Shown in pieces: positions 132 to 4,404 of a stretch of DNA of 8,358 bases. This DNA comes from a virus (lineage: Duplodnaviria > Heunggongvirae > Uroviricota > Caudoviricetes). Location: the IMG/VR virus record IMGVR_UViG_2639763115_000003; one strand, written 5' to 3'. A program made the translations under genes and the position numbers. Position 1 is the stretch's first letter. Each line of letters begins with the position of its first letter. Under the pieces are notes generated by a model. It was not told the DNA's origin, did not search any database, and worked only from the letters and a program-made list of their open reading frames with translations.

Positions 132-638
132 TTAAATTGCGTGAATAGCGTGACGAGGGAAGGGGAGAGTTACTGGTGCAAAGGGGATATCGTCGTCAAA
201 ATCCATCGGAGGTTCGTTGTGTTGTGCTGGTGATGATTGCTGCTGTGGCTTCTGTGATTGCCTGCTGGCTGCTTGTTGTTTGCTGTCGCCAATGCCGCCA
301 AGCATTTGCATCACGCCATTAATTCCGACATGAACCTCGGTTGTGTAACGGTCTTGCCCTGACTGGTCTTTCCACTTTCTGGTTCTCAGCATTCCCTCGA
401 AATAAATCTGATCACCTTTTTTCACATACTGCCCCACGACCTCAGCCAGTTTCCCGGATACAGCAACACGATGCCATTCAGTCAATTCCTTTTGCTCGCC
501 AGTATTTTTATCTCGCCATTGTTCTGACGTGGCTATTGTCAGGTTAGCGAACGCTGTTCCTGATGGTGAGTATCGAACTTCCGGGTCTTGTCCTACCCGA
601 CCAAGGATAATCACCTTATTTACGCCTCTGCTTGCCAT
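132..638 (-). CDS. ssb: Single-stranded DNA-binding protein
   Basis: 168 aa with an OB-fold-like N-terminus, a Gln/Pro-rich linker and the canonical acidic C-terminal tail DDDIPF. Its ATG directly abuts the stop of the upstream recombinase (TAAATG). Confidence 0.9.
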
Positions 639-2384: not shown

Positions 2385-2477
2385 TTTATATCCTATCAAC
2401 TGCGTTCATTAATCAGCGTTTACGCTCATGAATAAACACCTCTCGTGAAGCATTATTGGTATGCGGTAAAGCCGCGC

Positions 2478-2846
2478 TCAGGCGGCTTTGATAGTCATAT
2501 CATCTGAATCAAATATTCCTGATGTATCGATATCGGTAATTCTTATTCCTTCACTACCATCCATTGGAGGCCATCCTTCCTGACCATTTCCATCATCCCA
2601 GTCGAACTCACAAACAACACCATATGCATTTAGGTCTTTTGAAATTGCTATAAGCAGAGCATGTTGCGCCAGCATGATTAATACAGCATTTAATAAAGAG
2701 CCGTGTTTATTTAGTCGGTATTCAGAGTCTGACCAGAAATTATTAATCTGGTGAAGTTTTTCCTCTGTCATTACGTCATGGTCGATTTCAATTTCTATTG
2801 ATGCTTTCCAGTCGTAATCAATGATGTATTTTTTGATGTTTGACAT
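2478..2846 (-). CDS. Hypothetical acidic protein (122 aa)
   Basis: Long ORF with AGGA about 10 nt upstream of the ATG. Strongly acidic, especially the C-terminal half (DWDDGNGQEGWPPMDGSEG...DSDD). No family recognised. Confidence 0.6.
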   Translation of the reverse strand: MSNIKKYIIDYDWKASIEIEIDHDVMTEEKLHQINNFWSDSEYRLNKHGSLLNAVLIMLAQHALLIAISKDLNAYGVVCEFDWDDGNGQEGWPPMDGSEGIRITDIDTSGIFDSDDMTIKAA

Positions 2847-2861
2847 CTATTCATTTCCTCA

Positions 2862-2892
2862 TAGATAAAAAATCGCCCTCACATAAGAGGGC
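2862..2892 (-). terminator. Rho-independent terminator in the pL operon (tL-like)
   Basis: On the minus strand: GCCCTC-TTATGT-GAGGGC hairpin (plus 2875-2892) followed by GATTTTTTATC. Lies between the 83-aa and 122-aa genes. Confidence 0.55.
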
Positions 2893-3028
2893 AAAGAAGA
2901 TTTCCAATAATCAGAACAAGTCGGCTCCTGTTTAGTTACGAGCGACATTGCTCCGTGTATTCACTCGTTGGAATGAATACACAGTGCAGTGTTTATTCTG
3001 TTGTTTGTGCCAAAAATAAAGGCCACCA

Positions 3029-3280
3029 TCAGGCAGCCTTGTTGTAAATGTTGCAGGTATCAAGTAAGTAATTAGATGGAGCGCCATAAATTATGAATTC
3101 ATCGTTTGTCGGGTCCATCTCCATCTCTTGGCCTATTGCCATTCTTGCGTCAGTGTCATCAGCGGCGAAGCATAAAACAGCCCACGCACCCATTGTTTTA
3201 AAAAGAACTGCAATTGGCTGTGGTTTTACTGAATTTGCGTTAGCGCGAAAATCATAAATCGCACTTTCATGAAATTCCAT
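3029..3280 (-). CDS. Hypothetical acidic protein (83 aa)
   Basis: ORF with GAGGTG RBS 4 nt upstream of the ATG. Net acidic. No family recognised. Confidence 0.55.
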   Translation of the reverse strand: MEFHESAIYDFRANANSVKPQPIAVLFKTMGAWAVLCFAADDTDARMAIGQEMEMDPTNDEFIIYGAPSNYLLDTCNIYNKAA

Positions 3281-3420
3281 ATCTCACCTCAAATAAGTGG
3301 TTTGCTGCCTAATTTCATTTTCTGGCGACCAACACAAGTCACACCCATTTCACTGCGTGGCTTGCGGTAGTAAAGATTGTGCCTGTCTTTTAACCACATC
3401 AGGCTCGGTGGTTCCTTCAC

Positions 3421-3477
3421 TTTCCACAGTCAAAGGAAATGGGTAGACTGTTGTTTCCACAGTCAAAAGAAGGGCTT
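3421..3477 (+). repeat. Two direct copies of TTTCCACAGTCAAA, 43 bp apart, upstream of the plus-strand small gene
   Basis: Exact 14-nt repeat at 3421-3434 and 3464-3477. Each copy holds a 9-mer matching the DnaA box TTATCCACA at 7 of 9 positions. The second copy ends 4 nt before the ATG at 3482. Confidence 0.5.
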
Positions 3478-3481
3478 TGTT

Positions 3482-3646
3482 ATGACAGATATTGTTAATC
3501 CTAAAACCAACCCACACGAAGCCGCTCAACAGATTATTGTTGAGCTTATCAGAGCCGGTAATCTTGCCCCTGGCATTGACGGAAAGCCAATCACAGTTGT
3601 TTATGAAAAAATTCTTGATGAGATTATCAGAATAAACAGTAAGTAA
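3482..3646 (+). CDS. Hypothetical small protein (54 aa) on the strand opposite the pL operon
   Basis: MTDIVNPKTNPHEAAQQIIVELIRAGNLAPGIDGKPITVVYEKILDEIIRINSK. ATG at 3482 with AGAAGGG about 8 nt upstream. The 89-aa track ORF begins at a TTG with no RBS, so the shorter form is preferred. Its stop abuts the stop of the convergent 97-aa gene (TAATTA). Confidence 0.45.
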   Translation: MTDIVNPKTNPHEAAQQIIVELIRAGNLAPGIDGKPITVVYEKILDEIIRINSK

Positions 3647-3940
3647 TTAAGAAAACAAAATTTCGAATGCCTGGCGGATGGTTGCAGCATCTTCGTTCGC
3701 CAGTTTTTTTCGTTCATCTGATGACATCGATAACAATGCATTTCTCTCAATCAATGTAGCCAGCAGTTTAGATGCTATATTTTGAACGTCAGGGCTTAAC
3801 TCTAAGAATTTATTTCGACTACGTTCGAGAATAAGTTGTGTAGCGGGTGTATCTTTTAACTCAGATATTTTTATGTCCAATACATCAAGCATTTCTTTCG
3901 TTTTCTCAATTAGTAATTGTTCAATACATGAAATATCCAT
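3647..3940 (-). CDS. Hypothetical protein (97 aa) immediately downstream of N
   Basis: Internal ATG at 3938-3940 with a GAGGT RBS lying inside the end of N; N stops 2 nt upstream. Preferred over the 125-aa track ORF, whose 5' end overlaps N. Predicted helical; no family recognised. Confidence 0.5.
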   Translation of the reverse strand: MDISCIEQLLIEKTKEMLDVLDIKISELKDTPATQLILERSRNKFLELSPDVQNIASKLLATLIERNALLSMSSDERKKLANEDAATIRQAFEILFS

Positions 3941-3942
3941 AA

Positions 3943-4215
3943 TTACCTCGCCGTCAGTTGTTTTGATTTCCGGTAGCCTGCCGCGTAAATGGCTACGTTT
4001 GGCAGGCAAATACTTCCACTGCATTCATCTGCCTTCTTGCAGCGAAGGCTTCCGAGTGATGCTGCTTTGTCTGCCCTGACGCAACCAGAGAGCTTTAGCG
4101 CAATTTTTCGCGCCAGTGCTTCATTACTGCGTCGCTCGGCAATAAGTTCTGCTCTGCGAGCTTTGTAGCGGCTTTTTGCCGTACCTTTGGATTCTTTCCA
4201 GACAATGGTTACCAT
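3943..4215 (-). CDS. N: N-type transcription antiterminator (phage 21-type arginine-rich motif)
   Basis: Contains GTAKSRYKARRAELIAERR, which matches my recollection of the phage-21 N arginine-rich boxB-binding peptide. The second ATG (MVTIVWKESKG...) has a strong AAGGAG RBS 7 nt upstream, so the start is called at 4215, not 4245. The nut sites on both sides have matching CUAACC hexaloops. Confidence 0.8.
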   Translation of the reverse strand: MVTIVWKESKGTAKSRYKARRAELIAERRSNEALARKIALKLSGCVRADKAASLGSLRCKKADECSGSICLPNVAIYAAGYRKSKQLTAR

Positions 4216-4325
4216 GATGGTCTCCTTTAAGTGGCTTTGGCGCATGACGCGTCGAGGTGCTTATCTTCTCGATCGCTGTCTTGCAGCTGCAATTCGCGCC
4301 ATCCCCAAAACCACTCAAGTTCTGG

Positions 4326-4366
4326 TCTCAACGGTTAGGTTGAGAGTCCGTCGATGTTAAAGAGCC
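4326..4366 (-). promoter_or_regulatory. nutL: boxA plus boxB hairpin
   Basis: On the minus strand: boxA GGCTCTTTAACA (plus 4355-4366), then boxB UCUCAAC-CUAACC-GUUGAGA (plus 4326-4345). Located between pL and N. Confidence 0.7.
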
Positions 4367-4404
4367 TGCCAATCTGTTCCGTTTGGCTTCCAGCGTCCTG
4401 CTGA

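Follow-up and report, generated by a model that had tools for sequence, protein, structure and literature searches.

Ea10 and a narrow-range orphan of the ral slot: two small acidic genes between N and cIII in a lambdoid prophage of Escherichia coli

What do small acidic proteins encoded between an N-type antiterminator gene and cIII contribute to a lambdoid phage? The question is raised by positions 2478-3280 of an 8,358-nt stretch of tailed-phage DNA (IMG/VR record IMGVR_UViG_2639763115_000003), referred to here at its full length as the window, in which two open reading frames (ORFs) encode proteins of 122 and 83 amino acids (aa). A sequence-only reading of this DNA had recognised no family for either protein and had proposed that they might be DNA mimics or other inhibitors of host defence. 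Here, we report that the 122-aa gene is ea10, the orthologue of lambda Ea10, and that the 83-aa gene is an orphan of narrow enterobacterial range. Both are already known as sequences, one as a named lambda gene and the other as a gene that has already been functionally screened. With modest confidence we favour the explanation that these are two previously catalogued, independent accessory genes, which a lambdoid E. coli prophage carries in its N-antiterminated pL operon on either side of a regulatory spacer, and that their products would act by specific binding; the identity part of this explanation is established.

The 122-aa ORF lies at 2478-2846 and the 83-aa ORF at 3029-3280, both on the minus strand, with ATG start codons behind good Shine-Dalgarno sequences (GAGGAAATGAATAG-ATG and GAGGTGAGAT-ATG, respectively). 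The larger protein has an isoelectric point (pI) of 4.31 and a net charge of -14 (23 D+E, 9 K+R), the smaller a pI of 4.24 and a net charge of -7 (12 D+E, 5 K+R). The position, strand and acidity given in the sequence-only reading were all borne out, and the C-terminal half of the 122-aa protein, which it had called strongly Asp/Glu-rich, is indeed enriched (13 D/E and 3 K/R, against 10 and 6 in the N-terminal half), "strongly" being a mild overstatement. The pair is flanked on one side by the N-type gene at 3943-4245 (Pfam N_peptide, E 4.8e-17) and on the other by cIII at 1738-1872 (Pfam cIII, E 6.8e-26), downstream of which follow kil, a Rad52-type annealase and a single-stranded DNA-binding protein (SSB). 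They share the interval between N and cIII with a gene for an HNH-AP2 endonuclease and with two ORFs, one of 97-125 aa on the minus strand and one of 54 aa on the plus strand. A prophage in E. coli 2017-02-2CC matches the window at 100% identity; the exact arrangement of the window was found in 1 of 5,426 complete E. coli genomes, while pieces of it are present in 2,339. Both ORFs are real genes, the larger because it matches the Pfam family DUF2528 (E 3.8e-46) and the smaller because it encodes a protein under purifying selection, with a ratio of nonsynonymous to synonymous substitution rates (dN/dS) of 0.115 against the homologue in Salmonella phage S9-5.

The absence of a recognisable family does not hold for the 122-aa protein, which is identical to lambda Ea10 (lambdap45) at 119 of 122 residues. 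The DUF2528 (PF10800) profile is matched in full, residues 16-119 covering positions 1-104 of 104 at 156.3 bits against a gathering cutoff of 22, and phrog_646 is matched at E 2.5e-70. From these alignments the gene is ea10, an orthologue of equal length and 98% identity that shares its flanking DNA with the lambda gene and lies, as there, downstream of tL2a and upstream of cIII-kil. The copy in the window differs by the substitutions V51L, S70K and N84D. Its surroundings differ as well, with an HNH-AP2 endonuclease cassette between ea10 and cIII and with a downstream recombination module that consists of the Rad52-like annealase and SSB where lambda has exo/bet/gam. At least 1,000 contigs encode exactly this 122-aa sequence. 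The Prokaryotic Genome Annotation Pipeline (PGAP) names it "DUF2528 family protein" (WP_000065359.1), and in Shiga toxin (Stx) phages, phage 21 and DE3 it is annotated as ea10 or "ssb". Ea10 is an abundant early lambda protein that was once taken for the kil product (PMC3961180), and its role has been described as "not fully understood" (bioRxiv 10.1101/2024.10.31.621285). Our literature search found no paper that gives Ea10 a function, and in the supplement of a lambda yeast two-hybrid study it appears as a clone only. It is among the last abundant early proteins of lambda without a function.

An AlphaFold2 (AF2) model of Ea10 built on 41 diverse homologues was confident, with a mean predicted local distance difference test (pLDDT) of 93.8 and a predicted template modelling score (pTM) of 0.85. 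It describes a compact alpha/beta domain in which a beta-hairpin (4-22) is followed by four helices (28-79), a long conserved loop, a strand (101-107) and an acidic tail. A Foldseek search with this model against 350,542 chains returned nothing at E<=0.001, profile and sequence searches of the Protein Data Bank (PDB) with Ea10 gave no match, and a fold search of BFVD gave a single uncharacterised relative. Since Ea10 matches no solved structure, it has no Ocr, ArdA or oligonucleotide-binding (OB)/SSB fold by these searches. This bears directly on the database label "ssb", according to which Ea10 would bind single-stranded DNA (ssDNA) and aid early recombination or replication. Many records carry that label, and recombination genes are close by, exo/bet/gam in lambda and the Rad52-like annealase and SSB in the window. 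However, DUF2528 was the sole Pfam match to Ea10 at E<=0.1, with none to the SSB/OB-fold family (PF00436); the predicted arrangement of a beta-hairpin, four helices and one strand is not an OB barrel, and SSB chains were absent from the structure-search results. A net charge of -14 also speaks against the label, as does the genuine SSB encoded in the window at 132-638. RefSeq/PGAP has dropped the label, and no report of DNA binding by Ea10 was found in the literature search. We consider ssDNA binding very improbable and worse supported than DNA mimicry, which is considered below. The label "single-stranded DNA-binding protein", being unsupported by fold, family or charge, should not be propagated.

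The distribution of conserved residues points to where Ea10 may act. Invariant in DUF2528 are M1, Y7, D22, H23, T27, F37, F81, E90, G91 and G97, and nearly invariant are N35, R44, W92, P93, D96 and G100; D22, H23, E90, G91, W92, P93, D96 and G97 are all present in the Ea10 of the window. The D-H pair lies at the end of strand 2. To judge from the family alignment, conservation in DUF2528 is that of the D-H pair and an EGWPxMDG loop, not of an acidic surface. The family extends beyond lambdoid phages to transposable phages of the Mu type, where it is encoded in the early regions. The DUF2528 genes of Salmonella, Serratia and Oceanobacter prophages (40-50% identity) directly follow MuA (rve)/MuB (AAA_22) and precede Mu Gam, GemA and Mor. 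Burkholderia phage phiE255 (gp34) and Stenotrophomonas phage phiSHP3 (orf4) have more distant members in their early regions, with some 29% identity to P0097, the Salmonella query. The neighbours of these Mu-like genes vary by phage and include Mu Gam, GemA, Mor, an HU-like protein and RdgC. Among the best 120 of 233 profile hits the domain stands alone in full-length proteins of 113-135 aa, partial or mis-started E. coli entries excepted, and no domain fusions were found. Two proteins that combine Gam or Kil with DUF2528 (P0045 and P0119) were rejected as fusions, since they resemble deletion chimeras. The D-H/EGWPxMDG motif offers targets for mutagenesis, and together with the occurrence in Mu-like phages it predicts a broadly conserved target.

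Invariant polar residues of this kind could also form a pocket, in which case Ea10 would be a small enzyme or would soak up a ligand, such as an immune-signalling nucleotide, as a "sponge"; the candidate lining consists of D22-H23, T27, N35, R44, E90 and D96 of the model. Several polar residues are invariant across phages of gamma- and beta-proteobacteria, the domain is compact, confidently folded and, within the hits just mentioned, free of fusions, and the high abundance of Ea10 (PMC3961180) would suit a stoichiometric sponge. On the other hand, the model bears no likeness to the anti-defence sponges solved in the PDB, Acb4 appearing only at E ~4 and a TM-score of 0.15, and the structure searches gave no hydrolase similarity. 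The hosts of Mu-like and lambdoid phages, moreover, have no obvious signalling defence in common. We regard an enzyme or sponge as unlikely.

The 83-aa gene (3029-3280, minus strand) is likewise not new. It corresponds to H0090 of VT2-Sakai and to AFM76313.1 of mEp234, and its product matches phrog_2471 over residues 1-83 of 83 (E 1.2e-60); nothing was found for it in Pfam, NCBIfam or PADLOC. The gene was present in 56 phage records, 54 of them at 95-99% identity, which include Stx phages, HK106, HK633 and mEp234, and two P22-like Salmonella phages carry it at 75% identity. Its homologues are limited to the Enterobacteriaceae, at >=70% identity, and an exhaustive HMMER profile search of 1.84 billion representatives yielded only two true clusters at 50% identity. 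Two long repeat proteins (P0122 and P0123) that scored in this search were rejected as relatives because their scores were sums of many weak repeat matches; P0123 proved on inspection to be an SprB-like repeat protein. A sequence search of the PDB returned only noise at E>0.09, and the AF2 model, built on 11 homologues, was poor (pLDDT 55). By sequence comparison the gene is a narrow-range enterobacterial orphan, already catalogued as H0090, orf60 (see below) and phrog_2471. PADLOC, NCBIfam and Rfam had no match to the 122-aa protein, to the 83-aa protein or to the spacer between their genes.

In prophages of E. coli, Citrobacter, Klebsiella and Enterobacter the 83-aa gene directly follows N, and in Salmonella phage S9-5 it follows an N/sieB module, so that the first position after N or N/sieB was held in every context examined. 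The same slot is occupied by ral in lambda, phage 21 and P22. Ral alleviates restriction and stimulates the type IA methyltransferase. Like ral of lambda and P22, the 83-aa gene comes first among the pL genes behind N or N/sieB, and it has the same downstream flank, which starts within the last codons (...KAA-stop), but position alone is not membership. No alignment to lambda Ral was obtained at E<=100, and none to P22 Ral either. Ral is basic (pI 8.8) whereas the 83-aa protein is acidic (pI 4.2), and no alleviation of EcoKI was logged for a homologue of the 83-aa protein in the screen in which Ral scored. Neither the 83-aa protein nor Ea10 showed similarity to P22 gp17, orf78, orf87, Ral or the neighbouring proteins of S9-5 and mEp234. 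Phages mEp234 and S9-5 (Salmonella) have the 83-aa gene but no ea10, and lambda and phage 21 have ea10 but no 83-aa gene; because each is found without the other, the two are independent mosaic cassettes and not a pair.

The screen referred to is that of Silas et al. (bioRxiv 10.1101/2023.04.06.535777), in which 200 accessory genes were expressed in ECOR strains and challenged by T2-T7, P1 and lambda. Its Supplementary File 3 lists AFM76313.1 of mEp234 as UDP0060 ("orf60"), which differs from the 83-aa protein of the window in one residue; Ea10 was not part of the library. The "Ral" region was the second-highest-scoring accessory region and contains known counter-defence genes. Phenotypes were reported for orf7, 24, 48, 63, 92, 98, 116, 126, 143, 145, 148 and 184, and orf60 is absent from this series. 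In the log for MG1655 challenged with lambda, a test of EcoKI, the hits were ardA, ral and ocr only (Silas et al.).

These data allow the proposal of DNA mimicry to be weighed, by which one or both proteins, like Ocr, ArdA or Arn, would present surface carboxylates that block type I restriction-modification or other defence enzymes. Ocr (T7 gp0.3), ArdA and Arn are likewise small, acidic, early-expressed proteins of phages or plasmids; both proteins studied here have a pI of 4.2-4.3 and are encoded within the Ral accessory region, and the product of orf184, from a neighbouring slot, is acidic too and is sensed by an abortive-infection system. The charge per residue of Ea10 (-0.115) is near that of T4 Arn (-0.098). 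However, the charge density of Ocr (-0.239) and ArdA (-0.160) is far higher than that of Ea10 or of the 83-aa protein (-0.084), so that by this measure neither resembles those two mimics. The comparison with Ocr/ArdA-like folds that had been suggested as a check was run with the confident Ea10 model and gave no match among solved structures, the conserved residues of Ea10 are not carboxylate arrays, and orf60 was not logged as an EcoKI hit. DNA mimicry is in our judgement improbable for either protein. What stands of the sequence-only reading is its placement of the two genes and its leaving of their function open; that no family is recognisable does not stand for the 122-aa protein, and DNA mimicry is unsupported.

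The orf184 of phage mEp237, which triggers the gop-beta-cII abortive system, deserves a closer comparison. It is small and acidic (107 aa, pI 4.1), is encoded in the Ral accessory region, ends in KAA and contains a "GWxPxMxxGEG" stretch that resembles the loop of Ea10. Homology to Ea10 was nevertheless rejected, the resemblance being at the level of the motif only (BLASTP E 0.25, hhalign probability 3.5%), and orf184 showed no similarity to the 83-aa protein. SPFH/Band-7 domains (HflK, HflC, stomatin, flotillin) and the EF-Ts core domain were also among the systems compared.

The genes of this region need not all be directed at the host. The 83-aa protein, and possibly Ea10, could serve competition between phages and prophages, by superinfection exclusion or by control of prophages or satellites, in place of host counter-defence. 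Exclusion genes of the sieB type are found in the same region of lambda, P22 and S9-5, other genes of the region engage P4-satellite or prophage systems (orf184 with gop-beta-cII, abc1 with P4), and the 83-aa family is found only in temperate enterobacterial phages. Against such a role, the 83-aa gene lies behind N on the lytic pL transcript and no promoter-like site of its own was seen in our scan; its expression from a repressed prophage is therefore not expected. The screen, whose exclusion hits include UDP79, UDP183, cor and imm, logged no exclusion phenotype for the 83-aa homologue. A role in competition accordingly has a low probability in our estimate.

Returning to the specific-binding explanation, both products would be cytoplasmic and soluble, and would be synthesised during the first minutes of the lytic cycle. 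That each binds a particular host or competitor protein, and is neither a DNA mimic nor an ssDNA-binding protein, is plausible, though we hold it at somewhat less than even confidence. For Ea10 the contact or active surface would most likely comprise D22-H23 and the E90-G-W-P-P-M-D-G-S-x-G loop, and gamma- and beta-proteobacteria should have its target in common, since the domain recurs, again on its own, in the early regions of Mu-like phages. The 83-aa protein would most likely be a host-specific counter-defence or takeover factor, interchangeable with Ral and without action on EcoKI. A bolder proposal can be made only tentatively, and we think it rather unlikely to be correct as a whole. 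Ea10 would then be an early protein of novel fold, used by lambdoid and Mu-like phages to neutralise a conserved factor of host defence or DNA metabolism through the D-H/EGWPxMDG motif, and the 83-aa protein would be a new counter-defence factor, specific to the host and alternating with Ral. It is suggested because no solved structure resembles Ea10 and because Ea10 lay outside the library of Silas et al., the only systematic screen of accessory genes that our search found. If true, an inhibitor of new fold common to lambdoid and Mu-like phages would be moderately interesting.

Several observations weigh against a role in specific binding. No binding partner is known for Ea10 or for the 83-aa protein, and with a pLDDT of 55 the model of the latter provides no structural support for such a role. 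The invariant D, H, T, E and D of Ea10 would be just as much in keeping with a small enzyme or with a pocket for a ligand. The missing phenotype of orf60 may reflect effects below threshold, a role outside defence or targets that were absent from the hosts used. In laboratory E. coli, lambda without ea10 grows normally, the gene having been found non-essential by CRISPR interference (PMC10695390).

As a discovery the pair is minor: sequenced E. coli prophages with these genes number in the thousands, the genes are also known from reference phages (lambda, phage 21, Stx, HK and mEp phages), and one of the two had previously been synthesised for screening. What is newly added here is a confident model of Ea10 without a solved match, its occurrence in Mu-like phages, its invariant motifs, and the purifying selection on the 83-aa gene together with its fixed slot.

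Between the two genes lie 182 bp (2847-3028) with about 98% identity to the ral-ea10 spacer of lambda. A terminator scan of the spacer region gave two minus-strand terminator-like hairpins, at 3040-3019 and 2894-2873. The first (3019-3040), AAGGCTGCC-TGAT-GGTGGCCTT followed by TATTTTT, resembles an intrinsic terminator and overlaps the stop codon of the 83-aa gene; it also marks the mosaic junction with lambda and phage 21, and the mEp234 annotation has a rho-independent terminator at the matching position. The second, a GC-rich hairpin followed by a U-run (T-run in the DNA), is tL2a. By its similarity to lambda the spacer holds the orthologue of the small RNA (sRNA) LPR1 with its tL2a terminator, an RNA of about 88 nt at 2866-2955 on the minus strand whose 3' end is tL2a and whose 5' end was estimated from the published length. 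Differences from lambda LPR1 are confined to the terminator loop, and the region folds far better than shuffled sequence (z-score -5.1). In lambda, to which the report is confined, LPR1 is Hfq-dependent, up-regulates translation of the host dnaN and supports phage replication (bioRxiv 10.1101/2024.10.31.621285). The 83-aa gene lies upstream of two terminators, one of them the 3' end of LPR1, and ea10 downstream of both, so that expression of ea10 would depend on N-mediated read-through. Any knockout or cloning of either gene must leave LPR1 undisturbed. LPR1 and tL2a lie within the interval treated in the sequence-only reading, yet went unmentioned there.

The hairpin at the end of the 83-aa gene has a counterpart elsewhere in the region. 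A terminal K-A-A-stop is common to Ral, the 83-aa protein, orf184 and Ea10 (3029-3045 and 2478-2490 in the window), and its codons make up the 5' arm of a hairpin, with AAGGCTGCC TGA ... in one case and AAAGCCGCC TGA GCGCGGCTTT in the other. Genes of the Ral slot have in common a downstream homology and a hairpin that starts inside the last codons. In these sequences the KAA-stop hairpin looks like a reusable cassette boundary.

The mosaic composition of the surrounding DNA is evident from its matches to reference phages. Positions 2434-3045 correspond to lambda and phage 21 (96%), 2434-3341 to VT2-Sakai (97%), 2867-3342 to mEp234 (98%) and 4024-4400 to N and nutL of phage 21 (99%), and a 58-nt piece at 3357-3414 is found upstream of sieB in lambda and P22. 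The N gene is itself chimeric, its 5' 222 nt being like phage 21 and its 3' 81 nt like VT2-Sakai and mEp234. The segment 1855-2433, the HNH-AP2 endonuclease cassette, is without counterpart in lambda, phage 21 and VT2-Sakai. It is a free-standing homing-endonuclease cassette between cIII and the 3' flank of ea10, where lambda has only a 72-bp spacer; its minus-strand gene spans 1872-2399 in the ORF list, with a likely ATG at 2384, and matches HNH_3 (E 1.8e-15) and AP2 (E 1.2e-6).

Two further ORFs lie between the 83-aa gene and N. The plus-strand 54-aa ORF (3482-3646; phrog_27767, E 3.9e-9; PGAP hypothetical protein WP_000129979.1) is situated at the sieB site of lambda and P22 and is preceded by the sieB-upstream piece at 3357-3414. 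Ahead of it are 18-nt direct repeats, TTTCCACAGTCAAA(G/A)GAA, at 3421-3438 and 3454-3471, and the ORF may be expressed from the prophage under an operator of its own. A minus-strand ORF of 125 aa (3647-4024) shares 82 nt, read in a different frame, with the 3' end of N; a start at the internal ATG at 3940, which directly follows the N stop codon and has GGAG ahead of it, would give a protein of 97 aa. No family match was found, YcgL appearing only at E 0.02-0.03.

The E. coli 2017-02-2CC prophage is apparently truncated on the left, beyond the window. According to PGAP, a gene with a 3'-5' exoribonuclease domain beside ssb is an incomplete pseudogene that abuts a partial Hpt-domain gene. The SSB of the window (132-638, minus strand) has its acidic, partner-binding tip (...MDFDDDIPF), which is usually C-terminal, in an internal position, since the protein continues for 17 residues beyond it, and the gene in mEp235 is of equal length. 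Further on, a 56-aa ORF at 1355-1525 on the minus strand matches phrog_1723, which carries the label "recombinase", and has a close homologue in AFH20475.1 of HK633, listed as orf168 in the library of Silas et al. It overlaps an acidic ORF at 1446-1619 (net charge -10), which is a separate gene in the mEp235 annotation.

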